Origin: Candidatus Dojkabacteria bacterium
Lineage (GTDB): Bacteria > Patescibacteriota > Dojkabacteria > SC72
Assembly (NCBI GenBank): GCA_012513575.1
Contig: JAAZBX010000007.1
Span: 27,931-91,930 of the forward strand
Reading direction: 5' to 3'
Length of the DNA: 64,000 nt
Below the pieces are notes generated by a model. It was not told the DNA's origin, searched no databases, and worked only from the letters and a program-made list of their open reading frames with translations. Both the position numbers and the translations under genes were made by a program. Shown piece after piece: positions 1,747 through 64,000 of the stretch. Positions within the stretch are counted from its first letter, which is position 1; every line of letters starts with the position of its first letter.

Positions 1747-1799
1747 TGGAGGGAACAATTAAGAAATAAGCATAAGGCTTAATTAGATTGTTCCCTCCA
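1747..1799. terminator. 13-bp hairpin between convergent genes (3' end of locus A)
   Basis: TGGAGGGAACAAT (1747-1759) / ATTGTTCCCTCCA (1787-1799); no clear U-tract. Confidence 0.6.
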
Positions 1800-1813
1800 T
1801 TGGGTTCTACCGG

Positions 1814-2170
1814 TTACATATATGAGTCTGTCAAAAACAAAATCAAAAGAATAAGAGGAAGAAACTTTAGTAAGGACAGAGCCAAATTAATTAGCCCCAG
1901 GCCAAATTTACCCTTTTCCACTTTTCCAAGCGAAAAATTACTTACTTCAAGAATTATCGCTATGATAAAAGCAAATGTTGCTCCTCTTAGAAACAAACCA
2001 AAAGGAAAAGATCCTTGGCCTCTGTTAAGGGTATACACGAGAAAAGTACTCACATATATTCCTATTTGGACCAAATTGACCCAAAGTTTCCCTTGGTTTT
2101 TCCCAATCTGGTAAGCCTCGATTATTACTTCGAGTACCATTAGGTATACAAAAACAATATCCCAGTTCAT
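1814..2170 (-). CDS. Orphan small multi-pass membrane protein (locus A gene 2)
   Basis: About 4 hydrophobic segments; SD AAGGAG 5 nt before ATG. Confidence 0.75.
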   Translation of the reverse strand: MNWDIVFVYLMVLEVIIEAYQIGKNQGKLWVNLVQIGIYVSTFLVYTLNRGQGSFPFGLFLRGATFAFIIAIILEVSNFSLGKVEKGKFGLGLINLALSLLKFLPLILLILFLTDSYM

Positions 2171-2179
2171 TTTTCTCCT

Positions 2180-2368
2180 TTATATCTCAACAAAGAATGG
2201 AATGGCTATCATTACAGCCCCAACTAAAATAAGTATTGTCCCGAAAAAAGAATTCGTGACTTCCTGACCATTGGAAATCAATTTCTTTCGGTTTAAAGTT
2301 TTCGACCAAGTCAGTATCAGCGAACCAAGCAAAAAAATACAAAATCCAACTGGAATTATTTTTTCCAT
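2180..2368 (-). CDS. Orphan 62-aa two-TM protein (locus A gene 1)
   Basis: Two hydrophobic segments; SD AAAGGAG 5 nt before ATG. Confidence 0.7.
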   Translation of the reverse strand: MEKIIPVGFCIFLLGSLILTWSKTLNRKKLISNGQEVTNSFFGTILILVGAVMIAIPFFVEI

Positions 2369-2471
2369 CGTTTCTCCTTTGATTATTTTCTATTTTTTAG
2401 TAAAACCCAATATACCCTCAACACTTGTTAAGAAAATATTGGGCTTCACTAATAAAAAATAGGGTAGAACC

Positions 2472-2541
2472 TTTTTAAAGAGCAGTTGATACCATAAAAG
2501 GTACCTACTTACATTATACTATAGGTTGCATCTTTTCTCAA
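2472..2541 (-). promoter_or_regulatory. sigma70 promoter, small hairpin and boxA-like site (locus A)
   Basis: TTGAGA(2541-2536)-17 bp-TATAAT(2518-2513); TACC-TTTTAT-GGTA hairpin; CTGCTCTTTAAAAA (2485-2472). Confidence 0.8.
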
Positions 2542-4320: not shown

Positions 4321-4370
4321 ATTTAGAATCTCTTGTGGAAAGTTAAGAAGAATGAATATATAATTAGAAG

Positions 4371-5597: not shown

Positions 5598-5600
5598 TAA

Positions 5601-7064: not shown

Positions 7065-7091
7065 AAAATCAAAAAGATATACAATATAGAG

Positions 7092-7202
7092 ATGAAAAAG
7101 AAAACTAAAGCTAACGTAACAAAAATTATTAACATAATCATGGCAGTCGTTCTACTAGCAAGTATTGTAGTCCCAATGATTATTGTTTTAACTTCTCTCT
7201 AA
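7092..7202 (+). CDS. 36-aa single-TM peptide
   Basis: MKKKTKANVTKIINIIMAVVLLASIVVPMIIVLTSL; TACAAT 6 nt upstream; stop 2 nt before recG. Confidence 0.6.
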   Translation: MKKKTKANVTKIINIIMAVVLLASIVVPMIIVLTSL

Positions 7203-7204
7203 TA

Positions 7205-9196: not shown

Positions 9197-9197
9197 A

Positions 9198-9656
9198 ATG
9201 GAAATCCATTTGGTCTTGGACAATATTCGCTCAGTTTTTAACGTAGGAAGTATATTTCGTTCTGCAGATGGGGCAGGTAGTGTAAAAAAAATTTACCTTT
9301 GTGGGATGACATCTGATATCAATAATCCAAAGCTTGAGAAAACTGCACTTGGAGCAATTGAAATGGTTCCATCTGAACATTACGAGAGTACCCAAGATGC
9401 TCTTGAAGAGATAAGAGCAAATAATATTCCAATATATTCAGTAGAATTAACTGAGGATGCAGTAAATTTCCAAACAGTTAAATATCCTTTAAAAATTGCA
9501 TTGATATTTGGACATGAGAAAATGGGTGTTGATGAGAACATTTTAAATACTTCTGATAAAAAAATATTTGTTCCTATGAGAGGAAAAAAAGAATCCTTAA
9601 ATGTTGCAAATTGTGCAACAACTGTTCTGTATGAGATCACTAGAGAACAAAAATAA
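9198..9656 (+). CDS. SpoU/TrmH-family RNA methyltransferase
   Basis: NIRSVFNVGSIFRS, FGHEKMG, SLNVA SPOUT motifs. Confidence 0.9.
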   Translation: MEIHLVLDNIRSVFNVGSIFRSADGAGSVKKIYLCGMTSDINNPKLEKTALGAIEMVPSEHYESTQDALEEIRANNIPIYSVELTEDAVNFQTVKYPLKIALIFGHEKMGVDENILNTSDKKIFVPMRGKKESLNVANCATTVLYEITREQK

Positions 9657-9702
9657 GCCTTTAATAGCTTTATTTTTAAACATTAAAACGATATAATCCC
9701 TT

Positions 9703-10446
9703 ATGAGTTTAAAACACGATTCGTTCAAAAAGGTGAGAAAGGAGAAAAACAAATGGAGATTAGATACCCCTGAAGATTTCGAGGAGATGGAAGATACCTT
9801 TCTTAAAGAGAGAATGCAGAGCAAGGAGCCTACAATCACTACAACCGTGAGAATTACGGCTGGAAAAGCGAAAAATTTCAACTTGGAAGTTCCCAAGGCA
9901 ACCCGTCCAATGACCGATAGGATGAAGATTCGTATATTTGACATCCTAAGAGAAGATTTAGTTAATAAATCCATTTTGGATCTTTATGCAGGTGCAGGTT
10001 CATTTGGATTCGAGGCTATCTCAAGAGGAGCAAAGCATTCAACATTTGTTGATGCATCAAAAAATGCCAATATTATTTTAAAAAAGAATGCTGCCCATAC
10101 TGGCTTCTTAATAGAAACAGAAATTATAAAGGAAAAGGTTGAAGAATATTTATTCAGGGTACTTAACCAAGAAGAAGTTCCATCATTTGACATAATTTTC
10201 ATGGATCCTCCTTACAAGCTTTTTAATACAAAAAAGACCTACAAAATGGAGAATGTAATAAATATGGCGACCAAGTTATTACCAGGTATCCAAGACAATA
10301 ATTGTAAAGGATGGAAAGGTGCACTTATTCTTAAACACCCGAAAAGATATGATTTAAACAAAATTAAGATAGAAAATTTAACGCTTGTAGAAAGCATTAA
10401 TCTGGGTATCAATGAAATATCCTTCTTTATTGTCAATTTTAAATAG
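9703..10446 (+). CDS. rsmD: RsmD-family methyltransferase with N-terminal extension
   Basis: TRPMTDR, LDLYAGAGSFGFEAISRGA, FMDPPY. Confidence 0.85.
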   Translation: MSLKHDSFKKVRKEKNKWRLDTPEDFEEMEDTFLKERMQSKEPTITTTVRITAGKAKNFNLEVPKATRPMTDRMKIRIFDILREDLVNKSILDLYAGAGSFGFEAISRGAKHSTFVDASKNANIILKKNAAHTGFLIETEIIKEKVEEYLFRVLNQEEVPSFDIIFMDPPYKLFNTKKTYKMENVINMATKLLPGIQDNNCKGWKGALILKHPKRYDLNKIKIENLTLVESINLGINEISFFIVNFK

Positions 10447-10634
10447 CATTAGATTAATATTCCACAGTTTCCTCTTCCCATTGCAAATTTGAGTATAAAA
10501 ATATAAAATACTTGTTGTGTATAGAATATACGGAATAAACAAATCAAAACTAAACAGAATAGTTTTTACAACACACACTTTTTAATGTGTGCTTTTCCCT
10601 TAACACTTTTTAATTAAATTACTTTGATAAAATT

Positions 10635-12425
10635 ATGGATTCTGAACAAAAAATAAAAGAAGAAAAATTAGAAAAAATGAGGCATTCTGCCTCACACATA
10701 TTAGCAGAAGCAGTATTAAAGCTTTACCCAGATACTAAACTTGGTATTGGACCGGCAATCGAAAACGGATATTACTACGACTTTGACTTTAGTGAACCTA
10801 TCGAAGAGGAGGACTTAAAGAAAATTGAGAAAGAAATGCGAAAAATTATCAAACAAAATCTTCCAATTACCCAAGTATTTATGAAGAGAACTGATGCAGA
10901 AGAATATTTCAATAAAACAGGTCAAATATACAAACTTGAGCTATTAGAAGAAATAGAGGGTAAGGAATTAAGCTTTTACATAACCGGGGAGAATGAATTT
11001 GCGGATCTTTGTAGAGGTCCTCATATCGACAGTACAAGTGAGATAGGAGCAATTAAACTTACAAAGACCGCTGGAGCATATTGGAGAGGAGACGAAAACA
11101 AAAAAATGTTAACAAGGATATATGGAACTGCGTTTGAGACAGAAAACGAGCTTAATACTTTTCTTAAAAATCAAGAATTGCTTGAGAGTAGAAATCATAG
11201 GAAAATTGGCAAACAGCTTGAGCTATTTGCTATCATTCCTGAAATTGGTCAAGGACTTCCTGTTTGGCTTCCTCGAGGCTACACAATTAGAAGAATTCTC
11301 GAAGATTACTTGTTAGAACTTGAAAACAATGCCGGATATCTTCATATTTTAACCCCTCATATCAATAAATCACAACTATTTGAAATATCAGGCCATTTGA
11401 ATTTCTACAAAGAATCTATGTATCCACCAATGCAAATAGAAGATGAAACTTACTATCTTAAGCCAATGAACTGTCCAGCAGGTATGATGGTTTACAATTT
11501 AAGTCCGAAAAGTTACAGAGACTTACCATACAAATTAGGGGAGTTCGGTACTGTATACAGATACGAGAAGAGCGGAGAGCTACATGGCTTACAAAGAGTC
11601 AGAGGATTTACTCAGAACGATGCACACATATTCTGTACCCCTGAACAACTCGAGGATTCAATAAATGAGACATTAGATTTACTCGACATATTCTACAAAG
11701 ATGTAGGATTTACAAAATACAAATTTAGGCTATCTCTTTCAGATAGAGAGGCTAATCCTAAAAAATATGCAGGAGATGTTGAGAGATGGAAACAAGCTGA
11801 AGAAACATTAAGAAAAGTTTTGATCGATAGAAAAGTTGATTTTGAAGAAATGCCAGGAGATGCAGCATTCTATGGACCTAAAATTGATATTCAAGCAGTT
11901 AATGTCTTTGGGAAAGAGGACTCTGTTTCAACTTTACAATTGGATTTCAATCTTTCTGAAAGATTCAAAATAAAATATATTGATCAAGATGGAAAAGAGC
12001 AAGAACCTTTTGTTATTCATAGAGCACTAATAGGGTCATTTGAAAGATTCTTTGCATTTTTAATTGAGACCCATGGCGGAGATTTCCCTCTTTGGTTTAC
12101 ACCTGAACAGGTTTATATTATCCCAATATCAGAGAAACATCACGATTATGCTAAACAAGTCTATGATCAATTACATAATTCAGGTCTAAGAGTAAAACTT
12201 GATGATAGAGAGAAAAGCATGCAGTCTAGAATACGAGATGCTGAGAAAATGAAAATCCCATATATCATCATTTTAGGTGACAAGGAAATTCAAACAGATA
12301 CTATCTCTGTTAGGACAAGAAAGAACAAGAGTGAAGGTTTAATGAAAGTTCAAGAATTTGTTGATAATCTCAAAGAAGAAATTAGAACAAAAGAGCCTTT
12401 TAAGGTAGAGATGGCTACTGTTTAA
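10635..12425 (+). CDS. thrS: Threonine--tRNA ligase (no N-terminal TGS)
   Basis: RHSASH, DLCRGPH, LKPMNCP, AFYGPKID, HRALIGSFERF. Confidence 0.97.
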   Translation: MDSEQKIKEEKLEKMRHSASHILAEAVLKLYPDTKLGIGPAIENGYYYDFDFSEPIEEEDLKKIEKEMRKIIKQNLPITQVFMKRTDAEEYFNKTGQIYKLELLEEIEGKELSFYITGENEFADLCRGPHIDSTSEIGAIKLTKTAGAYWRGDENKKMLTRIYGTAFETENELNTFLKNQELLESRNHRKIGKQLELFAIIPEIGQGLPVWLPRGYTIRRILEDYLLELENNAGYLHILTPHINKSQLFEISGHLNFYKESMYPPMQIEDETYYLKPMNCPAGMMVYNLSPKSYRDLPYKLGEFGTVYRYEKSGELHGLQRVRGFTQNDAHIFCTPEQLEDSINETLDLLDIFYKDVGFTKYKFRLSLSDREANPKKYAGDVERWKQAEETLRKVLIDRKVDFEEMPGDAAFYGPKIDIQAVNVFGKEDSVSTLQLDFNLSERFKIKYIDQDGKEQEPFVIHRALIGSFERFFAFLIETHGGDFPLWFTPEQVYIIPISEKHHDYAKQVYDQLHNSGLRVKLDDREKSMQSRIRDAEKMKIPYIIILGDKEIQTDTISVRTRKNKSEGLMKVQEFVDNLKEEIRTKEPFKVEMATV

Positions 12426-37462: not shown

Positions 37463-37915
37463 ATGAAGAGATCAACTGATCCAAGACATTTAGCAAGAAT
37501 CCTTGCACTTCAAGGACTTTTCTCAAAATACTTTTTGCAAAAAGAAATTCATATGGAGATGATTCCCATTAAGGAACTTTTGTCCATTGATGAATTTGAA
37601 GACTATGATAAGGACTTATTTGAAAAAATTACTGAAGGGGTTGTAAATAATATCGAACAGATAGATAAATTGATTGAGAAATACGCGCCCCAGTGGCCAA
37701 TTCAACAAATGAAGTTAGTTGATTTACAAATCCTAAGAATTGCTATTCTTGAAGGCTTTATCTCAAAAATTACTCCTCCTAAAGTTTCAATAGATGAGGC
37801 AATTGAAATCGCAAAAGATTTTGGTGGGGAGAGTAGTGGGAAATTTGTAAATGGGGTTCTTGGCGCAATATACGAAGAAATTAAATCTGAAGAAGAAAAA
37901 GATGGAGAAAATTAA
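37463..37915 (+). CDS. nusB: Transcription antitermination factor NusB
   Basis: RHLARILALQ, ILRIA, IDEAIEIAK, FVNGVL. Confidence 0.94.
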   Translation: MKRSTDPRHLARILALQGLFSKYFLQKEIHMEMIPIKELLSIDEFEDYDKDLFEKITEGVVNNIEQIDKLIEKYAPQWPIQQMKLVDLQILRIAILEGFISKITPPKVSIDEAIEIAKDFGGESSGKFVNGVLGAIYEEIKSEEEKDGEN

Positions 37916-38594
37916 CGAAATAGAAGAAAAAATTGGAGTAAAGTTTAAAAATCACTTACTTCTCGAAACAGCTTTTACACATAGGTCATATCTTAATGAA
38001 AATAGAGGAAAGAATTTGGAAAATAATGAGAGGTTAGAATTTTTAGGAGATGCAGTACTCGAATTAATTGTGTCAGCAAACCTTTATCATAATTACACCG
38101 ACAAAGCCGAGGGCGAGCTTACAAGTATTAGAGCTGCAATAGTAAGAACAGAGAGCTTAGCAAAAGAGACTGAAAGGTTAAATCTCGGAATGTATCTTAG
38201 GATGTCAAAAGGAGAGAAAGATTCTGGAGGAGAGGAGAAACCATATTTACTAGCCAACTTATATGAGGCACTTCTTGGAGCAATCTATTTAGATGCTGGA
38301 TATGAGGAATGTTTATATTTTGTGAAGAGAACTCTTTTCAAAAAAATTAAGAGGATTATCAGTCAGAAGCTTTTTATTGACCCTAAAACAAAGGTACAAG
38401 AGATAATGCAAAGAAAACACCGTATAACACCCACATATGAGATCCTAAAAGAAGAGGGGCCCGATCATAAGAAATCTTTTACGGTAGCTCTCTTTATGGG
38501 AGACAGGAAAGTTGTTGAAGGAGAAGGTGCAAGCAAACAAAAAGCTGAGGAAAATGCAGCAACGAATGCAATAGATATTTTAGAAAAAGATTAA
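37902..38594 (+). CDS. rnc: Ribonuclease III
   Basis: AFTHRS, NERLEFLGDAVL, dsRBD (DPKT...EGPDH...SKQKAE); start set to ATG 37902. Confidence 0.96.
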   Translation: MEKINEIEEKIGVKFKNHLLLETAFTHRSYLNENRGKNLENNERLEFLGDAVLELIVSANLYHNYTDKAEGELTSIRAAIVRTESLAKETERLNLGMYLRMSKGEKDSGGEEKPYLLANLYEALLGAIYLDAGYEECLYFVKRTLFKKIKRIISQKLFIDPKTKVQEIMQRKHRITPTYEILKEEGPDHKKSFTVALFMGDRKVVEGEGASKQKAEENAATNAIDILEKD

Positions 38595-45170: not shown

Positions 45171-45968
45171 TTACATACAGGCAGGACTATTCACATCAAG
45201 GCATTCTGTGTCTTTGTCAGAAACACAACTTGGAGAACATGGGTCATCAGGGCTTCCAGGTATTACTGGGGATGGAATATCTTTAACAATTGGTTCCAAA
45301 GTCTTATCTGTTCCATCATCCGTATCACAATATGAGGGTCTACCATCAATACAGTTTGTATTCTTTGTAGGATCACATGGAGCACAAGGGTCATAGGTTG
45401 GTTCCTCTTTTATTGGTGTCCACGTCCTTCCGTCCCAATTTGACCTTGTTTTAGCTTTCTTTATCAATTCATAACTTGCCGGGTCTTCCACAGGTAGATA
45501 CTTCTCCTTTGTTATTGTTCCAAAACCCTCTCCCATGGTTGGGTCTCCAAATCCATTTCCTACACAAATTATCCCTTTTTGTAATTCATCATCAATCCCT
45601 CCTAAAGTAACACAAATTAATACGGCTTGTTTAGATGTATTAGTAGAGTAGTAGTAGGTAGCTTCAGAACCACCATTAAAAAGACCTAAATCTAAATAGT
45701 TTTTTAGACTTCCTCCCTCTGCAGTCATCTGTTCAATACTAATTGGTGTCCCATCAGGTTGACTCCCATCTGGGAATACCCCATTATCAGTATAGAAGGA
45801 TTGAGCAGCCTGATAGAGTTGTGTGGCACCATTTTTATGTGCTATCTCATTTGATTTGTCTATTGAGAATCTTCCTGCAGCTACTCCTACGACAATTAGA
45901 ATTACCAAGATCCCCATTACAATTAGCATTTCTACTAACGTGAATGCTTTATATGATTTTTTCTTCAT
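45171..45968 (-). CDS. Type IV pilin with Cys-rich C-terminal extension
   Basis: AFTLVEML; paralog of 46078-46653; extra tail with two 4-Cys units. Confidence 0.88.
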   Translation of the reverse strand: MKKKSYKAFTLVEMLIVMGILVILIVVGVAAGRFSIDKSNEIAHKNGATQLYQAAQSFYTDNGVFPDGSQPDGTPISIEQMTAEGGSLKNYLDLGLFNGGSEATYYYSTNTSKQAVLICVTLGGIDDELQKGIICVGNGFGDPTMGEGFGTITKEKYLPVEDPASYELIKKAKTRSNWDGRTWTPIKEEPTYDPCAPCDPTKNTNCIDGRPSYCDTDDGTDKTLEPIVKDIPSPVIPGSPDDPCSPSCVSDKDTECLDVNSPACM

Positions 45969-46022
45969 AATTGCTTTTTTAAATTTACTTATTATAAATT
46001 ACACAATATCGTTATACTTGTC

Positions 46023-46077: not shown

Positions 46078-46653
46078 TTATTGAACTACATCAACAGTTC
46101 CCCATCCATCTCCATTCCAGAAAGATGTATCAGCCGTCTCAACAATAGCAGTATATTCTGCATTCTCATCTGCTTCGTAAAATTCTTTGGTAATTGTAAA
46201 TGAGCCACTCCCATTTGTCAGAGTGTCAGGAGCAGTAAGGGCAAAACCGTTACCAACACAAGAGACACCTTTATTTGTCTCATCACCCGCTCCACCCAAG
46301 GTTACACAAACAACAACTGCCTGTCTGGTACTATTTACATAATAAGAATAGTCTGCCTCAGACCCACCCTTAAATGAACCCATATCTAAATATTTTCCCA
46401 AAGCACCCTCCACATTGTTAGGATTCGTGGTCATGTTCTCCAAAGTGTCATAACTTGGAAATCTTCCATAATCAGTAAAATGAGATTGTAATGCTTGATA
46501 TAACTGTGTAGCACCATTCTGGTGTGCAATTTGATTTGCTCTATCAATTGCAAACCTTCCTGCAGCTACTCCTACTACCATAAGGATAACTAAGATTCCC
46601 ATAACAATAAGCATCTCAATCAAAGTAAATGCTTTGTATGTTGCTCTCTTCAT
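46078..46653 (-). CDS. Type IV pilin (probable major pilin)
   Basis: AFTLIEML; Cys pair; own terminator. Confidence 0.88.
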   Translation of the reverse strand: MKRATYKAFTLIEMLIVMGILVILMVVGVAAGRFAIDRANQIAHQNGATQLYQALQSHFTDYGRFPSYDTLENMTTNPNNVEGALGKYLDMGSFKGGSEADYSYYVNSTRQAVVVCVTLGGAGDETNKGVSCVGNGFALTAPDTLTNGSGSFTITKEFYEADENAEYTAIVETADTSFWNGDGWGTVDVVQ

Positions 46654-46720
46654 ATATTTTATATATTTAGGTTAATTTAACTAATAATAAGTTACACAAT
46701 GCTATTAACATTGTCAATAG

Positions 46721-54761: not shown

Positions 54762-57491
54762 ATGGATGAGGAAAAAAACATCACACAAGAGAATATAGAG
54801 GGGATAGAACAAGAGATTTCCTTCCATCCTGGAGAGGTATCTCCAAGATCTATTGTTGATGAGATGAAAAGTAATTACCTAGACTACTCAATGTCGGTAA
54901 TTGTTTCAAGAGCGCTCCCAGAAGTAAAAGATGGACTCAAACCATCTCAAAGAAGAATTCTTGTTGCAATTAATGATTTAGATTTAACTCCTTCATCCCA
55001 TTACAGAAAATGTGCGAAAATAGCTGGAGACACCTCTGGTAACTATCATCCTCACGGAGAGGCTGTCGTATATCCTACATTGGTAAAAATGGCCCAAGAT
55101 TTCTCTATGAGATATCCACTTGTTGATGGACAGGGGAACTTTGGCTCCATTGATGGAGATGAGGCAGCAGCGATGAGATACACAGAAGCAAGAATGGGAA
55201 AGATAACTCCAGAATTACTTTCAGAACTAAATAAGGGTACTGTAACTTTCGTTCAAAACTATGATGGTACTAGGCTAGAGCCAACAATTCTTCCTGCTGG
55301 ATTCCCAAATATCCTTGCTAATGGAGGTGATGGTATAGCGGTAGGTATGGCTACTAAAATACCTCCGTTTAATCTCACAGAGTTAATAGAAGCACTTCAA
55401 GGAATGATCAAAATGGGAAATACTTGGGTAGGGAAAGCCGTTTACAACGAACTCAGAAAAGCGAAAGAAGCCAAGGAAATTATCCCTCAAACTCTTAATT
55501 CACAACCCACAGATTACCTTGAAAGCTATGTTAATACATCTGATATTAATTATCAGGAAGAGATAGATGACCTAAAAAAGAAAATTGAAGAAGAAAAAGC
55601 CGTTCTTTACCCTGATTTCAAGTGTGAAATGACCCCTGAACAATTAATCAAAATTGTCCCAGGACCTGATTTCCCAACCGGTGCTACAATTTATGACCAA
55701 CAGGAAATCCTAAACGTCTATGCAACTGGAAGAGGAAGAATCATTCAAAGGGCAACTGCCTCCATCATTGAAGGGAAACAGGGAAAGTACCAGATTGTAA
55801 TTTCTGAAATCCCTTTCCAGGTAAACAAATCACATATGATTGAAAAAATCGCAGACTTGGTAAAGGAGAAAAAAGTCAAAGGAATTGCAGATATCATTGA
55901 CGAATCAAATATTGAAGGAATGCGCGTAGTAGTTTACCTAAAAAGAGATGCTCAACCAAAAGCTGTATTAAACAAGCTTTACAAATATACCGAGATGCAA
56001 AAAGTCTTCAATGCAAATATGATTGCGTTGGTAGATCAGGAGCCTAAAACATTACCAATCAAAAGAATCCTTGAACTCTTCATCTCTTTTAGACTCACTG
56101 TAACAATTAGAAGATTTGAATTTGAACTTGCAGCTGCTAGGTACAGAGGACATATTTTAGAGGGACTACTCAAAGCAATTGATTTACTTGATGAAGTAAT
56201 ATCTACAATTAGAAATTCTAAAACCCAAGATACAGCAAAAACTAACTTAATGGACAAATTTGAATTCACAGAAGTACAAGCACAAGCAATCCTTGATATG
56301 CAATTAAGAAGATTAGCAGCCTTGGAGAGGATGAAACTAGAAAATGAACATAAGGATATTAAAGCAAAAATTGCAGAATTAAATATTAAACTTGATGATC
56401 CAACTAAAATATTAGAAGTTGTAAATACAGATCTCCAACAAATTAAGGAGAAATATGGAGATGCAAGAAGAACAAAAATTGTTAAAGGTAAGATTAACGA
56501 AATTTCAGAGGAGGATATGGTAGCATCAGAAGATACATTGGTTACAATTACACATTCTGGATATATTAAGAGATTAAATCCGAGTACTTACAAAGCTCAA
56601 AATAGGGGAGGCAAGGGTGTAAATGGCGGAGAAACAAAAGAGGGAGATTTCATTGAACATGCATTTCTATGCAACACTCACGATGAGCTACTAATTTTTA
56701 CAAATAAAGGGAAGGTCTTCAATCTTAGAATATTTGAAATACCTGATCTTGGAAGAACAGCAAAGGGATTACCCCTAGTAAACTTAGTACAATTAGAACC
56801 AGACGAGATTGTCACCTCTGTATTAACTAGAGATCCCAAGGGGGTTGTTGGTGAAGGCAAAGCTGCCGAGGGAGAAGAAACAAAAAACTTCAAATACCTT
56901 TTAATGGCGACTGAGAAAGGATTAATCAAAAAAACAGAATTGGGAGAGTTTACCAAGATTAGATCGAATGGTTTGACCGCGATAAAATTAGAAGACGGAG
57001 ATCAATTAACTTGGGTGAAAGCTACTTCAGGTTCTGACGAGGCAATTTTGATTACAAAAGAGGGTAAGTCTGTTAGATTTAAGGAAACAGATGTCAGGCC
57101 TATGGGAAGAAGTACAAAGGGAGTTACTGGAATTAAATTCAGAACTCAAACTGACTCAGTTGTAGGAATGGCAATTGTAGGTTCGAATGAGCAGAAACTT
57201 CTTACCCTTTCTGAATATGGGTATGGCAAAATGAGCTTCCTAAAAGAATATGCAACACAAAAAAGAGCAGGCACAGGTATCTTTACTTTTAGGGTTACTT
57301 CTAAGACTGGTAAGATTGCATGTGCTCGTATTCTTAAAAAAGAGGATCAAGAAATATTTGTTATTTCTGAGAAATCAAAAGTTATTAGATCTGAACTGAA
57401 AGATGTTCCAATACTTGGGAGACAAACATCAGGAGTTAAGGTTATGAATATGAATAGTGGGGACAGGGTTACAACTGTTGCCGTCCTTTAA
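54762..57491 (+). CDS. gyrA: DNA gyrase subunit A with internal insertion
   Basis: DGLKPSQRR, YHPHG, AAMRYTE, GyrA box QNRGGKG, pinwheel repeats. Confidence 0.96.
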   Translation: MDEEKNITQENIEGIEQEISFHPGEVSPRSIVDEMKSNYLDYSMSVIVSRALPEVKDGLKPSQRRILVAINDLDLTPSSHYRKCAKIAGDTSGNYHPHGEAVVYPTLVKMAQDFSMRYPLVDGQGNFGSIDGDEAAAMRYTEARMGKITPELLSELNKGTVTFVQNYDGTRLEPTILPAGFPNILANGGDGIAVGMATKIPPFNLTELIEALQGMIKMGNTWVGKAVYNELRKAKEAKEIIPQTLNSQPTDYLESYVNTSDINYQEEIDDLKKKIEEEKAVLYPDFKCEMTPEQLIKIVPGPDFPTGATIYDQQEILNVYATGRGRIIQRATASIIEGKQGKYQIVISEIPFQVNKSHMIEKIADLVKEKKVKGIADIIDESNIEGMRVVVYLKRDAQPKAVLNKLYKYTEMQKVFNANMIALVDQEPKTLPIKRILELFISFRLTVTIRRFEFELAAARYRGHILEGLLKAIDLLDEVISTIRNSKTQDTAKTNLMDKFEFTEVQAQAILDMQLRRLAALERMKLENEHKDIKAKIAELNIKLDDPTKILEVVNTDLQQIKEKYGDARRTKIVKGKINEISEEDMVASEDTLVTITHSGYIKRLNPSTYKAQNRGGKGVNGGETKEGDFIEHAFLCNTHDELLIFTNKGKVFNLRIFEIPDLGRTAKGLPLVNLVQLEPDEIVTSVLTRDPKGVVGEGKAAEGEETKNFKYLLMATEKGLIKKTELGEFTKIRSNGLTAIKLEDGDQLTWVKATSGSDEAILITKEGKSVRFKETDVRPMGRSTKGVTGIKFRTQTDSVVGMAIVGSNEQKLLTLSEYGYGKMSFLKEYATQKRAGTGIFTFRVTSKTGKIACARILKKEDQEIFVISEKSKVIRSELKDVPILGRQTSGVKVMNMNSGDRVTTVAVL

Positions 57492-57559
57492 TCGCCATAT
57501 CTCTCTTGTAATATTCAAAGTCCTGTGATTATGAGAGAGGAGACATTTCTTAAATGTGC

Positions 57560-57628
57560 TTGAATTCACTTCCGACCTATAGTATAATATAAGTATATAC
57601 CTTTATGGTATAAACTGCTCATTAAAAA
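57560..57628 (+). promoter_or_regulatory. sigma70 promoter, small hairpin and boxA-like site (locus C)
   Basis: TTGAAT(57560)-17 bp-TATAAT(57583); TATACC-TTTAT-GGTATA; CTGCTCATTAAAAA (57615-57628). Confidence 0.8.
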
Positions 57629-57630
57629 CT

Positions 57631-57807
57631 TCCAATTAATACTTTGTGATTTATATCCTGTATTAATCTGGATAAATAGCATGTGATGAGAATATATTCT
57701 TCCTTATCCTTTTTGGGATGCATATTGTACCTAAGTATATTGGGTATATTATGCATCTCAAATGAGGTGATAAAAAATTAAACAAGAAATATTCGAGGAG
57801 GAATATT
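57631..57807 (+). ncRNA. Structured 5' leader shared with locus D
   Basis: Hairpin 57631-57672, arm TAGCATGTGATGAG 57677-57690, long hairpin 57715-57759; covaries with 62164-62307. Confidence 0.7.
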
Positions 57808-58887
57808 GTGAAAAAGCTAGTAGTTTTTATTCTTATGTTAAGTATTGTATTAGGAGCATGTAATCCAAACCCAACAAATGTACCGACTATCGAACCAACA
57901 GCAACTCCAAGTCCAACGCCATTTGTATGGTCGTGCGAAAATGATCCCGTGAGGGGTGTATCGCTAGACTTAGAGGGAATGTACAAGACAAGTATAGAAA
58001 ATAGGTATGTTCCCGGGTGTACTCAGGGGTTTTTCATAGGTCTCTCAGGAGAGGCGTACCAAATCAATTTCCTTTTCAAGGACTATCAAGCTATTAGTCT
58101 TGACAATTCTTTTATCGCCAATTTAGAGACGACTGTTGAGTGGGAAATATATGCTTATGATTATTTTGTTCCACATCATTCTCAAAAAAAAGGTGATATT
58201 ATCTCCTTTGTAATGCCAGCTCCAGGGTATTTTCTTCTTGATCGTAACGGCTACCTTTATTTTGGAGTATTCGATGATCCTAATTTTGAAGATTATGTTA
58301 GGGTATTTGTGGATGGCGAGGAATGGTTTGCTTCTTCTACTACTGTTAGAATCTTGTTATCCCCAAATGGAGAATACATTGTACCGGAAGGAGCCACAGT
58401 AAGAATTGAGTCAATCAAGGATGCAGTTGATTATCAAGGTTTAGAGAATTACGGAACTCTCGGTTGGATTGAAGCAATTGTTTTTGAACGAACGTACCCC
58501 GGGGACACAGCAAAGACCAATCACCCAATTCTGAATGAAGAAACCCAAATTGATTTCGGACCGTATGGGATTTATAAACCCTCCTTTAACGAAGAAAGAA
58601 ACAAGTGGGGCCTTTCCCTTTCAGAAGAATCCATGGTAAAGCCTGGGATTTGGGAGGAAGGATATCTGAGAGACTTCATTTGGCACGGTGGTGCGTATGT
58701 ATTTTATATGCCCGCAGATGGGGTTGTATTTTGGAATAGAAGAACTTCTTCAATTTTGTTTGAAGGGGACGAAACAGATTCAGACACTGACAAAATAGAT
58801 GCACACCTCTATCGAGAGGGTGATTTAGTAGTTGTCTATTTTGAGAGGGCTTCTCTGGATGATTTTTACATTGAGTTTTTGAATTAA
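57808..58887 (+). CDS. Orphan lipoprotein (locus C)
   Basis: GTG start with SD GAGGAGG; lipobox LGAC; Pro/Thr linker; C-terminal domain similar to the locus D protein. Confidence 0.85.
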   Translation: MKKLVVFILMLSIVLGACNPNPTNVPTIEPTATPSPTPFVWSCENDPVRGVSLDLEGMYKTSIENRYVPGCTQGFFIGLSGEAYQINFLFKDYQAISLDNSFIANLETTVEWEIYAYDYFVPHHSQKKGDIISFVMPAPGYFLLDRNGYLYFGVFDDPNFEDYVRVFVDGEEWFASSTTVRILLSPNGEYIVPEGATVRIESIKDAVDYQGLENYGTLGWIEAIVFERTYPGDTAKTNHPILNEETQIDFGPYGIYKPSFNEERNKWGLSLSEESMVKPGIWEEGYLRDFIWHGGAYVFYMPADGVVFWNRRTSSILFEGDETDSDTDKIDAHLYREGDLVVVYFERASLDDFYIEFLN

Positions 58888-59047
58888 TGTCTCCCCAACT
58901 CTAGCTAGGTTTAGAACTGAAATATATCTTTAATATGATTAAACATATTAAAACAAAAATTTCATTTCACACAACCTCATCACATGCTAGAGTTCTATTT
59001 AGATATTTGTTCTAAAATACTATTTTGTATTTTCTGATAAATACCTA

Positions 59048-59272
59048 TCATTGAACTCTTACAATATTAAAATCCCTGTAATACTCATCACCTGATAACG
59101 CTATGATATTTTTTGACAACTCATCATAACTCATCCAGCTATCATCAATTCTTTTTTTCTTTAAACTTTTTTTAAGAATATTCTCAAATTTGCTTAATTT
59201 CTCATTCAAGTGATAAATTTCAGTATTAACAATTTGGGAAATCATTAGATAATCCTCATTTGATAATCTCAT
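59048..59272 (-). CDS. Small hypothetical protein
   Basis: 74-aa ORF with ATG after an AT-rich region; no recognisable motif. Confidence 0.45.
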   Translation of the reverse strand: MRLSNEDYLMISQIVNTEIYHLNEKLSKFENILKKSLKKKRIDDSWMSYDELSKNIIALSGDEYYRDFNIVRVQ

Positions 59273-59401
59273 ACTTTTTATTAATAAATTTATTAATTTA
59301 TTCTAACCCACTCCGAAATATACTTCTTCACCTAGAGAAAAATATATTAACCTTGTATAAAATTGCTATTCTCCAAGAACTATATGTTGTAAAATAAGAA
59401 C

Positions 59402-60226
59402 ATGTCAGAATTCTGGGTAAAAATGATTACTTTTCTAATGAGTTTGACCCTATCTGTATCAACATATAGCCCTATGGGGAAATTAGTTAATCCTGATGAG
59501 AAAGGAATACTTTTCAGAGGAGAAGTTAAAGAGAGATTAATCAATGAGAATTCGGGAATTAAAGCTTTAACAACTCCTAATATCGTATCAAACAATACAA
59601 TCATAGGCTCAAAATGGTGGATATATCCTGAAGAAATTAAGCTAACGAAAAGAAGTGGAAATGATTTACTTGTTCTTGTGAATAAAGAGTATCGCTTACC
59701 AGAAACCTTTATCCCTATAGATCTTGTAAAAGCTAGCCAGTCGGGGATTAGAAGAGGAGAGAGCTATTACCTCAGGAGTATCTTAATTAATGACTTAAGA
59801 GACTTAGTAAACCAGGCTTCAAATGATGGCGTTGATTTAAGTATTCGCTCAGGATATAGATCTTATGCCGACCAACTTTATACTTACAATTTCTGGTTAA
59901 AAGCGAATGGAAATATTGAGGACGAAGCCGACAAGGTATCCGCTAGAGCAGGGCATAGCCAACACCAATTAGGCACTGCAATTGATTTTAGTAGCGCAGA
60001 AATCCAGGATGGATTAGGAGGCCAATTTTCAGGAACCCTTGCAGCCAAATGGTTAGAACAAAATGCATGGAAATACGGATTTGTTTTGGCTTTTCCAAAA
60101 GGATATGAAAATACAACTGGCTTTAGTTACGAAAGTTGGCATTACAGATATATTGGTATCGCTAATGCTTTAAATGTGATAAATAGTGGGAAAATATTGG
60201 AAGTATACTTAAGAGAGATTAATTAA
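59402..60226 (+). CDS. VanY/LdcB-like M15B carboxypeptidase
   Basis: LVNK, SGYRS, SQHQLGTAID (SxHxxGxAxD), YESWH. Confidence 0.92.
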   Translation: MSEFWVKMITFLMSLTLSVSTYSPMGKLVNPDEKGILFRGEVKERLINENSGIKALTTPNIVSNNTIIGSKWWIYPEEIKLTKRSGNDLLVLVNKEYRLPETFIPIDLVKASQSGIRRGESYYLRSILINDLRDLVNQASNDGVDLSIRSGYRSYADQLYTYNFWLKANGNIEDEADKVSARAGHSQHQLGTAIDFSSAEIQDGLGGQFSGTLAAKWLEQNAWKYGFVLAFPKGYENTTGFSYESWHYRYIGIANALNVINSGKILEVYLREIN

Positions 60227-60240
60227 CGTATAATAAAAAA

Positions 60241-60873
60241 ATGAAAAGTAATGGACCTCAAAAGATTCAAAATATTTATGTACTAATAGGATTTTTCTTT
60301 CTTTTTCTCTCGCTTATTGCTATTGCCATACCTATTGGGCCATATGTTTGGTATAGAATCAATCCCAATGAGACAGATAAAGATATTGAAAAAATCGTTA
60401 AGGAGATAACAACTGAAAAAATTGAACACAAAACTAAAACCACATCTCAAGTACCTCCACTTGACCCATCACTTCCGGAAACACCTTTTGTAATTATCCC
60501 CAAAATCAATGTTGAATCTCCGATCTCAACAAATAAAGATTTTAATACTGGCCTTGCAAAGGGCTCATGGATTGTGTCAGATTACGGAACTCCTGAGAAA
60601 CCAGAATTGCCAATTATTCTTGCTGCTCATAGATTCGGCTATGCAAATTGGAGTGTAGAGAAAAGAAATAGAATCTCTTTTTACAATCTCCCAGAGACCC
60701 AAGAGGGAGATGATGTTTTTATCTATTGGAATCAAAGAAGATATAACTACAAGATCTACAAGTCAAAAGAGAGTACCTATATTAGCGATTACAGTGCCGA
60801 CCTCATACTATATACATGCAAATTCTTTAATTCTCCGGTTCGTATCTTCCGGTATGCAGAGCTAGTTAAATAA
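60241..60873 (+). CDS. Sortase
   Basis: N-terminal TM; IPKINV, AAHRF, LILYTC, R triad. Confidence 0.88.
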   Translation: MKSNGPQKIQNIYVLIGFFFLFLSLIAIAIPIGPYVWYRINPNETDKDIEKIVKEITTEKIEHKTKTTSQVPPLDPSLPETPFVIIPKINVESPISTNKDFNTGLAKGSWIVSDYGTPEKPELPIILAAHRFGYANWSVEKRNRISFYNLPETQEGDDVFIYWNQRRYNYKIYKSKESTYISDYSADLILYTCKFFNSPVRIFRYAELVK

Positions 60874-60905
60874 GCATTCCTCACACAGAGAGAAGCCCCA
60901 TAGTG

Positions 60906-60934
60906 TTGCCATTTCGGTTATTTCATGCTATAAT
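60906..60934 (+). promoter_or_regulatory. sigma70 promoter of the small exported peptide gene
   Basis: TTGCCA-17 bp-TATAAT with TG extension. Confidence 0.7.
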
Positions 60935-60967
60935 TATCCTGCATTTAAATTAACTAGCCCTTTATAT

Positions 60968-61207
60968 ATGAGGAAGTTATTTTCAGCAACTTTAGCTGCT
61001 ATCTTGATTTCCGCTATAAATGTTTCTTCTGTCCTAGCTAGTGGGAACCCATACGGTCCATATAATCCATATGAACCTCATGAACCACTTCCAACTGGAT
61101 TTGGTGATACAAACACCTTCTATCTAGTAGCATTAGTCGCATTTACTGTCGGAATGATTATCTTAGCAATAGCTAAAGACCTTAAGGGCAAGCAGTCTGC
61201 TGCATAA
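60968..61207 (+). CDS. 79-aa exported peptide with LPTG-TM-basic tail (candidate sortase substrate)
   Basis: Signal peptide ending VLA; SGNPYGPYNPYEPHEPLPTG; TM; KDLKGK. Confidence 0.75.
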   Translation: MRKLFSATLAAILISAINVSSVLASGNPYGPYNPYEPHEPLPTGFGDTNTFYLVALVAFTVGMIILAIAKDLKGKQSAA

Positions 61208-61276
61208 CAGTTGACTGCTCCCTTGGGGAGCAATAAATGCATTTTCTATAAATTTACTTATTTTTATCATTTTAAA

Positions 61277-62050
61277 ATGAAACTATCTTTGGTTATACCA
61301 ACATACAAAAAACAAAGAGATGTTTTGGATCAATTAGAAAGAGTATACGGCTACCTTTCAAGAAAGAATCCTGACTTTGAACTCATCTTCGTTATTGATG
61401 GGTATGTTGATAATACTAAGGATATTTTAGAAAAATATGTTAAGGAGAATAGATTAAAAAAAGTTTCCATCATAGGATATGAAGATAATATGGGTAAGGG
61501 ATATGCTGTTAGATATGGAATGAAAAGAGCTACAGGGGACGTTATTGGCTTTATTGATGCTGATACAGATATTCAAATTAGGACTTTAGGTTATGCTCTA
61601 AAATCTATCAAACATGATTCTGTCATGGCTGTAGTACCTTCTAAATTTCATAAGGATTCAAATGTTGAAATGAAACTTGGTAGAAAGATTCTTTCCTATG
61701 GATTGATGTATACTAATAGGTTTCTTTTAAAGCTACCAAAGAATGTTGACGATGTTGGGTGTGGTCTCAAATTATTTAGAAAAGAATTAATCGAAAGAAT
61801 ACTTCCTTCGTTAAGAGTAAATAATTTTGCGATAGATTCTGAGATATTAAATCTAATTGGTAGAGTAGGTTACTCAGTTTCCGTTATTCCTTTCTACTTA
61901 AACAAGAACAGAAGTGAAAGTACATCTGCGAATATTGGGAAGATTTTAGGCATGGTGAAAGATATATTTGTCCTTTCATTAAGTAATAGATATATTTTCA
62001 AGAACTCATTCTCAAAGCCATCTTACATTGACAATTCTAGCAACCTATAG
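61277..62050 (+). CDS. GT2 glycosyltransferase (DPM/DPG-synthase-like)
   Basis: LSLVIPTY, NMGKGYAVRYG, FIDAD, GLKLF; start set to ATG 61277. Confidence 0.88.
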   Translation: MKLSLVIPTYKKQRDVLDQLERVYGYLSRKNPDFELIFVIDGYVDNTKDILEKYVKENRLKKVSIIGYEDNMGKGYAVRYGMKRATGDVIGFIDADTDIQIRTLGYALKSIKHDSVMAVVPSKFHKDSNVEMKLGRKILSYGLMYTNRFLLKLPKNVDDVGCGLKLFRKELIERILPSLRVNNFAIDSEILNLIGRVGYSVSVIPFYLNKNRSESTSANIGKILGMVKDIFVLSLSNRYIFKNSFSKPSYIDNSSNL

Positions 62051-62089
62051 TATAATACATGTGTTAATTGTTAACCTGCTCTTTATAAA
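62028..62089 (+). promoter_or_regulatory. Consensus sigma70 promoter, small hairpin and boxA-like site (locus D)
   Basis: TTGACA(62028)-17 bp-TATAAT(62051); GTTAA-TTG-TTAAC; CTGCTCTTTATAAA (62076-62089). Confidence 0.85.
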
Positions 62090-62095
62090 TTAATC

Positions 62096-62363
62096 CTTAA
62101 GAATTCATAGTGAAGACCCTTGTCCTATATGAGTTCTTAAGAACTCGAAGATCATTAAAAATTTCTAAGTATATACATTGATTTTATTCGGTATGTATTT
62201 AGATCAAATAGTGTGTGATGTAAGAGAGTAGGGTATTCATTTTACTTCCTACCATCCTTTTGGGATGCATAGTGTATCTAATATTTATTGGATATAGTAT
62301 GCATTCCATTTGGATGCAAAAGCAGAGAGCTTTTTCGAAAATTATCGGCTTAAGGAGGCCAAA
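62096..62363 (+). ncRNA. Structured 5' leader of locus D
   Basis: Hairpins 62097-62141, 62164-62203, 62262-62307; second boxA-like GATCATTAAAAA near 62150; arms 62208-62221 and 62321-62329. Confidence 0.7.
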
Positions 62364-62924
62364 ATGAAAGACAATAAGAAAGATGAAAAGAAACCTAACT
62401 GGAAAGAAAAGATCAAAGAGGTCAATTGGTGGATGGTTTTGGCCATCATTGCGGTCATAGCTTTATTGCTATCGTTCGCCTATCGGGCGCAACAAGCGAA
62501 GCTAGCCGCTCCAGCAGCATCATCACAGTCCTCAGGACAAACAGGCGACCAGACAGGCATCGTTGCTGCGGCTCCCAATTGTCAAGAAATTGGCATAACT
62601 TTCGGCAAAAGCGGTTCATTCCGTTCCGTATGGGACTCGAATATGAAAACATGCGTTCTGGGAATGTGGGAAGAAGCGAGGATTTCGCCCGGAATGTCCT
62701 TGGCGGACTTGAAAATTCAAGGGGACGATTACTCGTTCCTCATGCCGTTCAAGGGATCAATTAACCATTCCGCGGACACCATTTTCGTGAACAATACAAA
62801 ATGTACCCCAGGGAACCCTGTTTCCTGTGATGGGAAAACTTCGTTCGAGAAGAACACCCCAGTACATATTGTTTCCGAACCGGGAAATGATTCCTCAGGC
62901 GTAATGCTTATTCAAAATCCATAA
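62364..62924 (+). CDS. Orphan single-TM surface protein (locus D)
   Basis: SD AAGGAGG then ATG 62364; charged N-terminus, TM, Ala/Ser/Gln linker, 4-Cys domain; visibly more GC-rich than its flanks. Confidence 0.82.
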   Translation: MKDNKKDEKKPNWKEKIKEVNWWMVLAIIAVIALLLSFAYRAQQAKLAAPAASSQSSGQTGDQTGIVAAAPNCQEIGITFGKSGSFRSVWDSNMKTCVLGMWEEARISPGMSLADLKIQGDDYSFLMPFKGSINHSADTIFVNNTKCTPGNPVSCDGKTSFEKNTPVHIVSEPGNDSSGVMLIQNP

Positions 62925-63009
62925 CAAACTCTCTGCTCCTGGGTGGGGGACAATCTTTTCTGCTTAACCGCATTAAAAATCCCCCACCCCACAAACATCA
63001 CACACTATC

Positions 63010-63081
63010 AATCTTCTAAGACTATACTGTCTTACTGATGAGTCCACATATATTTACAAATATATTGAGGACGAAAAGATT
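63010..63081 (+). ncRNA. Type III hammerhead ribozyme
   Basis: AATCTT-C (stem III 5' strand and C17), stem I TAAGAC/GTCTTA, CTGATGA core, stem II GTCC/GGAC, GAA-AAGATT (core and stem III 3' strand). Confidence 0.93.
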
Positions 63082-63097
63082 TCCAAACCTTGAAGAA

Positions 63098-63931
63098 TTA
63101 ACTAAATATTTTCCTTGAAAGTTCAAATACTTTCATAAAAAGAGTGGGAGGGAGAACACTTAAAATTCGAACCCCTACTTTTTGTATACCCCAAATCACA
63201 CTTTCTCTAAAGGTTGGTTTAATATTCAAATTCTCTATCGCCCAGTTTCTTACCTCATTTGTTTTATTAAAATGATCAACCATTTTTGCCTGGCTTTCCG
63301 TTTTAAAAGTCATTCTATACTTCAGAACCGTATCAGGAAGATTTGCAAACTCTCCTTTGGTACTAAGGGTTAAAAACAGTTTTACATCTTCAGTCTTCCA
63401 CATATCTTCTGGATACAAACCTACCTCTTCTAATGTTTTTCTCCGAAGCATTACGGCCGGATGGGCAAAGGGTTGAAACAGAAATCTGTTCCTTTTCAAT
63501 CGGGAATCCTCCAACGCATACTCCCTATGACCAATATTGTTGGATTTCTCATCGATTATGTCTATTTGACCTCCAACTGCAACACAATTGGGGTTCGTCT
63601 CCATATATTCTGCCTGCTTTCTAATTCTATCCGGGCACATTATGTCATCAGCATCCATTCGTGCGATATATTTGCCGTTTGAGCTCTTAATCCCAATGTT
63701 TATTACATTTCCCAAGCCATTCTGTTTTTCTATAGGAATTACTTTAAGGATATTGGTCTTTTTTTGATATTCATAAAGAATCCCTAAAGTATTATCCTCA
63801 CTCTTGTCGTCAACAACAATGATTTCCAAAGGAGAGTAATCTTGATTCAAACAGCTCTCAATTGACTCTTTTATATATTTCTCTCCATTGTGAACAGGTA
63901 TTATTATTGACACCAAGGGATTAGATTGCAT
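63098..63931 (-). CDS. GT2 glycosyltransferase
   Basis: VSIIIPVHN, IIVVDDKSED, YIARMDADD, HPAVM, ED. Confidence 0.92.
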   Translation of the reverse strand: MQSNPLVSIIIPVHNGEKYIKESIESCLNQDYSPLEIIVVDDKSEDNTLGILYEYQKKTNILKVIPIEKQNGLGNVINIGIKSSNGKYIARMDADDIMCPDRIRKQAEYMETNPNCVAVGGQIDIIDEKSNNIGHREYALEDSRLKRNRFLFQPFAHPAVMLRRKTLEEVGLYPEDMWKTEDVKLFLTLSTKGEFANLPDTVLKYRMTFKTESQAKMVDHFNKTNEVRNWAIENLNIKPTFRESVIWGIQKVGVRILSVLPPTLFMKVFELSRKIFS

Positions 63932-64000
63932 ATCTATTTGATTTAATTAGTTTAATTACAAAAAATACAAAGATTATGAGAATTAATGCATATCCTAAAT

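Follow-up and report, generated by a model that had tools for sequence, protein, structure and literature searches.

A leader and trailer frame with a boxA-like motif around interchangeable surface-protein genes in Dojkabacteria

The window analysed here, 64,000 nucleotides (nt) of Candidatus Dojkabacteria bacterium (contig JAAZBX010000007.1 of assembly GCA_012513575.1, positions 27,931 to 91,930), carries two gene cassettes, C and D, whose leaders share a structured RNA motif, and this leader is the front half of a larger frame. The frame runs from a sigma-70 promoter through a boxA-like motif, a hairpin (H1), an arm of 12-14 nt, a second hairpin of 23-44 base pairs (bp; H3), the ribosome site and an open reading frame (ORF) to a further hairpin and a complementary arm, which in D is followed by a type III hammerhead ribozyme motif while C is without one. 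Within the genome that holds both cassettes (G000; 716 kb, 98.9% complete) the leader core is found in C and D only, the shared leader pattern giving two matches as compared to a shuffle mean of 0.00. Both leaders fold far better than expected (z = -7.3 for C and -7.2 for D), the plus strand folds some 20-26 kcal/mol better than the minus strand (-59.7 vs -39.5 and -71.2 vs -44.8 kcal/mol), and the arm closes across the ORF in the minimum free energy and centroid folds of both whole transcripts.

A sequence-only reading had described the two leaders as a covarying RNA motif. The element order that it gave is present in C at 57616-57767 and in D at 62150-62316, every base change that it quoted as keeping a pair between C and D is found in the sequence, and the arm has a 14-bp partner beyond the ORF in both cassettes. 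That description was accurate but incomplete, as the conserved NTCATTAAAAA matches a boxA-type element and the type III hammerhead of the D trailer had been overlooked; likewise a leader motif with RNA covariation stands, but a self-contained leader motif or riboswitch candidate does not, the arm being half of a leader-trailer helix. ATCC-TTTT-GGGAT, which had been taken for a conserved hairpin, is instead one side (the 5′ strand) of a hairpin of 26 bp, with letters that vary in relatives. No known riboswitch had been recognised, and at the gathering level Rfam indeed returned nothing for the leader and only a tRNA over the whole window; the best weak leader match, to RefA1, reached 25.3 bits, far below the threshold of 94. 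Weak Rfam matches to miRNA, CRISPR-repeat and RefA1 families were rejected as generic hairpin matches, and twister, pistol and a 5′ hammerhead in the leader were rejected on by-eye comparison with consensus features, without Rfam support.

Covariation of the arms and leader hairpins

The covariation that had been noted between C and D persists in larger sets of homologs. A fully paired 12-nt partner lies 276-1314 nt downstream in 41 of 48 distinct leaders, as found with a filter that demanded a near-perfect partner. Of the remaining seven, five are truncated at the end of a contig, one pairs at 11 of 12 positions and one is without a partner. Double-sided (compensatory) changes occur in 8 of the 12 arm columns, and cognate arms form 11-12 Watson-Crick pairs as compared to a mean of 9.25 for non-cognate combinations, of which 20 in 106 still pair fully when G-U pairs are counted. 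A minimum of 8 changes is required to account for the nine arm variants, and 11 on a leader tree built without the arm. In full-length folds, which were completed for 26 of 36 units, the pairing probability of the arm exceeded 0.9 in every case.

In the H1 alignment 95.3% of cells are paired, 6 of 10 pairs show double changes and all slid controls score lower, the accompanying shuffle test being inflated by relatedness. H3 keeps its length of 23-44 bp in 35 of 36 units even though its sequence differs greatly between genera, and it is therefore structure rather than sequence that is conserved. The D leader carries an additional element, H0, in which two mutually exclusive pairings are both conserved and ATGAGTTYTT...RAACTC hardly varies from genus to genus. 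Of 41 units, 31 contain both H0 and the 3′ hammerhead and six contain neither; the idea that H0 is required for the hammerhead was rejected, as the hammerhead is present and H0 missing in three units and in two minimal ones. When the leaders were folded alone, the ribosome site paired with a partner more than 40 nt upstream in 20 of 36 units as compared to 5.0 expected with the 5′ segment shuffled.

The boxA-like motif, the hammerhead and RNA ends

The motif TGCTC(A/T)TTA lies 21-28 nt past the -10 element, has an invariant core in 24 aligned leaders and is close to the boxA consensus GYTCTTTAANA (PMC5725501). The parallel with ribosomal RNA (rRNA) extends to the genome itself, where TGCACATTAAAA and TGCACATTTAAAA directly precede the arms of the 16S and 23S stalks, and a looser boxA-like version stands before the 16S arm in five relatives. 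A promoter followed by the boxA-like motif was found at eight sites in G000, including C, D, two further arm-framed units and the transfer-messenger RNA gene, where TGTTCTTTACAA lies between promoter and gene (G000:C1:116652, locus L151). The two further units, at 2526-1747 on the minus strand of the window and on contig C22, have arms of 9 and 13 bp that are unrelated and directly follow boxA. The C22 arm (G000:C22:30963, L149) is kept in six relatives and masked by Ns in a seventh, and the 9-bp arm type is weak alone, with scores of at least 28 at 3 of 64 control promoters and a partner that was not recovered in several relatives. Both units follow the order promoter, boxA, arm, hairpin, ORF, arm and hairpin, and an inner motif resembling GAGC(T)TTTA(A)TGCTY is common to the terminal hairpins of the two. 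Minimal hammerhead units (L087 and L104) consist of promoter, boxA, an arm that overlaps the Shine-Dalgarno region, ORF, arm and hammerhead, with the arm directly after boxA as in rRNA. The boxA of Escherichia coli brings in the rRNA antitermination complex; as has been proposed, this complex keeps hold of the leader so that pairing with the trailer becomes possible (PMC10250234).

The hammerhead of the D trailer is a full-length match to RF00008 (30.5 bits, E 0.0015 with the full model) and the only hammerhead in the genome, while homologs with a short stem II reach 42.6-43.8 bits. The core CUGANGA and GAAA is present, as CTGATGA at 63035-63041 and GAAA, with stems I and II closed and stem III open (6, 4 and 6 bp) and the triplet UUC, which fits NUH. 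Compensatory stem variants are seen across the homologs, a complete core with all three stems is retained in 31 of 34 copies, and in all 34 the predicted cut falls 7-9 nt past the arm; the hammerhead probably cleaves the transcript and leaves it with a protected end. In four studies the RNA contigs terminate shortly before the predicted cut, at 62998 (X2), 63013 (X5), 63002 (X13) and 63003 (X14), which is a weak hint of a native 3′ end near 63016, while a contig of the unlabelled run X19 continues across the cut. The D leader is uncovered by the contigs of X2, X3, X5, X13, X14 and X17 and covered in X6 and X19, an observation that was not used as evidence, since a gap in contig coverage is no proof. 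The positions of all elements are given in Table 1.

Table 1. Elements of the frame and related features in the window
Feature	Position	Strand	Remark
C promoter-like site	57560..57588	+	TTGAAT-17-TATAAT, 10/12; contains family motif CCTATAGTATAAT
C small hairpin	57596..57612	+	directly before boxA, a position we take to be boxB-like
C boxA-like motif	57616..57628	+	TGCTCATTAAAAA; consensus GYTCTTTAANA (PMC5725501)
C hairpin H1	57630..57672	+	
C 5′ arm of leader-trailer helix	57677..57690	+	14 bp with 58976-58989
C anti-Shine-Dalgarno stretch	57693..57704	+	predicted pairing over ribosome site and start codon, probability 0.94
C long hairpin H3	57708..57767	+	26 bp; candidate RNase III site, putative cleavage role
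C cargo ORF	57808..58887	+	359 amino acids (aa), lipoprotein-like signal; matches profile of D orphan domain
C 3′ arm	58976..58989	+	
C structured tail	58989..59059	+	at hammerhead position, without hammerhead core
D promoter-like site	62028..62056	+	perfect TTGACA-17-TATAAT, 12/12
D first boxA-like motif	62077..62088	+	TGCTCTTTATAA
D element H0	62095..62146	+	two alternative pairings; resembles decayed hammerhead stem II
D second boxA-like motif	62150..62161	+	GATCATTAAAAA
D hairpin H1	62164..62203	+	
D 5′ arm of leader-trailer helix	62208..62221	+	14 bp with 62995-63008
D long hairpin H3	62253..62316	+	26 bp; candidate RNase III site
D inner arm	62321..62329	+	predicted partner 62929-62937, just past stop codon
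D cargo ORF	62364..62924	+	186 aa; N-terminal membrane anchor and orphan beta domain of ~115 aa
D trailer hairpin	62941..62989	+	
D 3′ arm	62995..63008	+	
Type III hammerhead ribozyme motif	63009..63082	+	predicted cut 63016/63017
Third unit	1747..2526	-	same promoter and boxA motif; 9-bp arm 2471-2463/1811-1803 around two small membrane-protein ORFs
nusB match	37493..37873	+	boxA-binding factor
RNase III match	37956..38345	+	

Cargo exchange and distribution of the frame

The proteins encoded within the frame vary while the frame is kept. Cargoes range from 76 to 359 aa and fall into 11 BLAST clusters, a hydrophobic N-terminal segment is present in 35 of 37, and the D-domain profile recognises 17 of 37. 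The model of the D protein (predicted local distance difference test 82.6) shows an orphan beta domain whose best structural matches are cupin and jelly-roll folds, a weak likeness (Z 5.8; root-mean-square deviation 4.2 over 89 aligned positions), and searches for cargo function gave no Pfam match over the cut-off, no atlas match and no Foldseek match at E≤0.001. The D slot, between two glycosyltransferase genes, is syntenic across the genus while its cargo changes. On a metagenome contig (L157) identity to the window is 99-100% from gyrA through the C leader and again from the stop codon into vanY, as compared to 33% for the intervening protein, the swap points being the start and stop codons and not the arms or hairpins; in one relative (G006) cassette C is 98% identical as compared to 74% for gyrA. 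These two contrasts indicate that the flanks behave as exchange arms, and we infer that cargo is exchanged through them by homologous recombination.

Several further observations concern the cargo sites. The D-family proteins P0004, P0008, P0009 and P0011 are mosaics in which N- or C-terminal halves are shared in different combinations, and at L069:338-1000 (genome G019) gyrA is followed by a C-type frame whose cargo is broken and contains short tandem repeats. One depth-2 contig of run X2 joins 57493 to 59061 and skips cassette C, which suggests strains with an empty site after gyrA. At 62304-62966, runs X2 and X3 show depth in the thousands over the D ORF as compared to its neighbours (in X2 about 4,000-11,000 vs 1-35), with several cargo variants in one sample; since contig depth cannot rank genes, no claim on abundance is made. 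On L156 part of the upstream gene recurs as the last 55 nt past a C-type trailer (630-684 and 2304-2358), either a duplication junction or an assembly chimera. Elsewhere in the window there is a direct repeat of 199 nt, with 74% identity, between two neighbouring genes (45771-45969 and 46456-46654).

We conclude that the feature is genuine and specific to the family. With a covariance model built on the leader core, matches were obtained in 44 of 99 genomes of the family, in 13 of 21 genera, and in none of 105 sampled genomes belonging to other families in the same class. A pattern for hammerhead and trailer, modelled on D, retrieved 28 loci among 185,579 species genomes, of which 18 are labelled Dojkabacteria, seven 'uncultured Saccharibacteria' and three 'bacterium'. 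Neither of the two specific frame patterns was found in viral contigs; 22 viral-contig matches to a 16-nt pattern were rejected as chance, as none fits the leader profile.

Proposed mechanism, rival readings and known systems

On balance it is probable that the frame is a conserved chromosomal device in which interchangeable surface-protein genes are transcribed between an rRNA-operon-like boxA and leader-trailer helix to yield end-protected mRNAs. The order of the parts, the covariation of the arms, the hammerhead consensus, the variability of the cargo and the presence in G000 of nusB, rho, RNase III and RNase J are established. Building on these, NusB and S10 would bind the boxA-like motif and block Rho termination in an untranslated leader of 200-300 nt, and Nus factors may hold the 5′ arm until the 3′ arm emerges, favouring closure of the helix. 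The helix, together with a hammerhead cut 7-9 nt beyond it in D, would shield both ends from exonucleases. RNase III may cut H3; in roughly half of the units, among them C but not D, this would at the same time expose a ribosome site that is otherwise occluded. The conserved flanks may double as homology arms for replacement of the cargo by recombination.

A number of points weigh against this proposal. The boxA-like motif is short and AT-rich, the second copy in D, GATCATTAAAAA, deviates from the E. coli consensus, and a hairpin of 45 nt lies between boxA and arm in C and D. The arms, of 12-14 bp, are shorter than the rRNA stalks of this genome (20-24 bp), and E. coli 16S rRNA requires more than 17 bp (PMC10250234). 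The relatives used in the comparisons are not independent. The D hammerhead, at its 30.5 bits, falls under the RF00008 gathering threshold of 48.5, and the hammerhead is dispensable since C and at least five other units are without it, with folded tails that have no hammerhead core; moreover, its share among units is biased upward because 28 loci were selected by the hammerhead pattern. The RNA contig ends do not fall at one exact base, the end of X3, at 62943, is a loose one, and contigs of low depth in RNA runs X2 and X17 lie across or beyond the hammerhead. Finally, occlusion by an anti-Shine-Dalgarno stretch was seen in only 13 of 26 full-length folds (0.94 in C as compared to 0.05 in D), and universal occlusion was accordingly rejected.

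The same occlusion data bear on the first rival, namely that the unit mainly stores a silent mRNA in the manner of the hok and aapA type I toxin messages, with 5′-3′ pairing and an anti-Shine-Dalgarno stretch blocking translation until processing, for example upon host contact. The excess of upstream ribosome-site pairing in leader-only folds, its persistence in the full fold of C and the overlap of arm and Shine-Dalgarno region in the minimal units L087 and L104 all fit such storage, for which there is precedent (PMC6733600), as there is for relief of an occluded site by RNase III (PMC5371410). Half of the units, D included, are nevertheless unoccluded at full length, and the cargoes are sizeable anchored proteins rather than short toxin peptides, so that we consider this reading unlikely, if worth keeping in view.

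A second rival, which we regard as distinctly improbable, sees the unit as a circular or retro-mobile RNA with flanking ribozymes, similar to a retrozyme, or as the descendant of one; the helix would then be a ligation stem and H0 a decayed 5′ hammerhead. H0 does resemble a hammerhead stem II with flanking AUGAG, its co-occurrence with the 3′ hammerhead noted above is in keeping with such a descent, and an intact hammerhead occupies the H0 position, directly before boxA and leader core, in the tandem units L121 (G108:C2:58500-62100) and L125 (G020:C1); the second unit of L121 is almost empty and has a hammerhead on either side. Retrozyme- or viroid-like RNA would have intact ribozymes on both strands or at both ends; such an arrangement is absent from G000 itself, while the two tandem loci of relatives show a unit that is flanked by two hammerheads or preceded by one. 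G000 is, despite its completeness, without RtcB and without reverse transcriptase (RVT_1) and has one hammerhead only, Rfam found neither an intact 5′ ribozyme nor any ribozyme on the minus strand, the D slot keeps its syntenic place throughout the genus, and the viral contigs contain neither frame pattern. No back-joint indicative of circular RNA was found in the 8 runs analysed out of 24, a result that covers contigs only, the RNA contigs not covering the leader, and circularisation is unsupported.

It is very unlikely that the flanks serve primarily as DNA-level recombination sites for cassette exchange, that is, as single-strand hairpins which we take to be attC-like, with the RNA features secondary. 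The exact replacement of cargo inside an identical frame, the G006 contrast between cassette C and gyrA, and the mosaic cargo homologs would suit such sites. All of the structure, on the other hand, lies downstream of the promoter and on the transcribed strand with the ribozyme core intact, the swap points of L157 are at start and stop codons, and no recombinase-like ORF was found in 57000-64000, the region searched. A ligand-sensing riboswitch or attenuator can be set aside as highly improbable, for despite the two mutually exclusive, conserved pairings of H0 in D, the part common to C and D consists of simple AU-rich hairpins without a conserved pocket, the downstream genes encode unrelated surface proteins, minimal units do without H0, H1 and H3, and no Rfam riboswitch matched.

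The boldest form of the end-protection proposal would make the frame an rRNA-like production line for mRNA in Dojkabacteria, in which Nus-guided closure and a ribozyme cut give a sealed, possibly circularised and long-lived message for a swappable surface protein, the frame deriving from a domesticated hammerhead-flanked element whose 5′ ribozyme survives as H0; taken as a whole, this is a speculation that we would not expect to hold. If the end-protection proposal itself is true, the frame would extend the logic of boxA and leader-trailer pairing from rRNA to mRNA. It also marks sites of surface-protein exchange in these host-dependent bacteria and could serve as a portable scaffold for stabilising mRNA.

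The individual parts, namely boxA with a leader-trailer helix, type III hammerheads and end-paired toxin mRNAs, are already known; their combination was not found in the literature searched, with most subscription journals and supplementary motif tables outside reach. Retrozymes (PMC6765202) are similar in their size of about 1 kb, structured nature, terminal hammerhead and variable middle, but the frame differs in having a single hammerhead and a coding cargo, in that no terminal repeats or target duplications were seen, and in its genome being without reverse transcriptase. Type I toxin mRNAs such as aapA/IsoA and hok/Sok (PMC6733600) likewise have paired ends, and ribosome-site occlusion is found in some units, but here the cargo is larger and anchored, boxA and a ribozyme are present, occlusion applies to only half of the units, and no antitoxin RNA was identified, no search aimed at an antisense RNA having been made. 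BoxA-type elements upstream of protein genes are known from suhB and other mRNA leaders (PMC5725501), in which the element is found close to the start codon and has a repressive effect; in the frame the motif is 120-290 nt upstream (about 30 nt in one minimal type) and precedes a long-range arm. Bacterial and prophage type III hammerheads (RF00008; PMC3088659, PMC6765202) share the full catalytic core, the three stems and a position next to a gene, while those described here sit at a fixed 7-9 nt past a long-range helix in a syntenic chromosomal slot, are found in no viral contig, have a long AU-rich insert in stem II and are lost from C-type copies. What bacterial self-cleaving ribozymes do biologically has been called largely elusive (PMC6765202), and in the present case a role is directly testable owing to the fixed distance to a covarying helix and to the natural copies without hammerhead (C), which provide a built-in control.

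The closest likeness is to the rrn operon leader with its boxB-boxA-boxC, leader-trailer helix and rRNA transcription antitermination complex (rrnTAC; PMC10250234), which has in common with the frame an often tandem promoter, a small hairpin, a boxA-like motif, an arm that pairs with the trailer around a looped-out passenger, and extra leader helices. The frame has a 3′ end with a hammerhead and a helix of 12-14 bp as compared to more than 30 bp in the rrn operon (20-24 bp in the rRNA of this genome), and by inspection the rRNA leader of this genome shows no likeness to it beyond boxA. As the frame encloses protein-coding ORFs and not rRNA, it works like an rrn leader but is no rrn leader.

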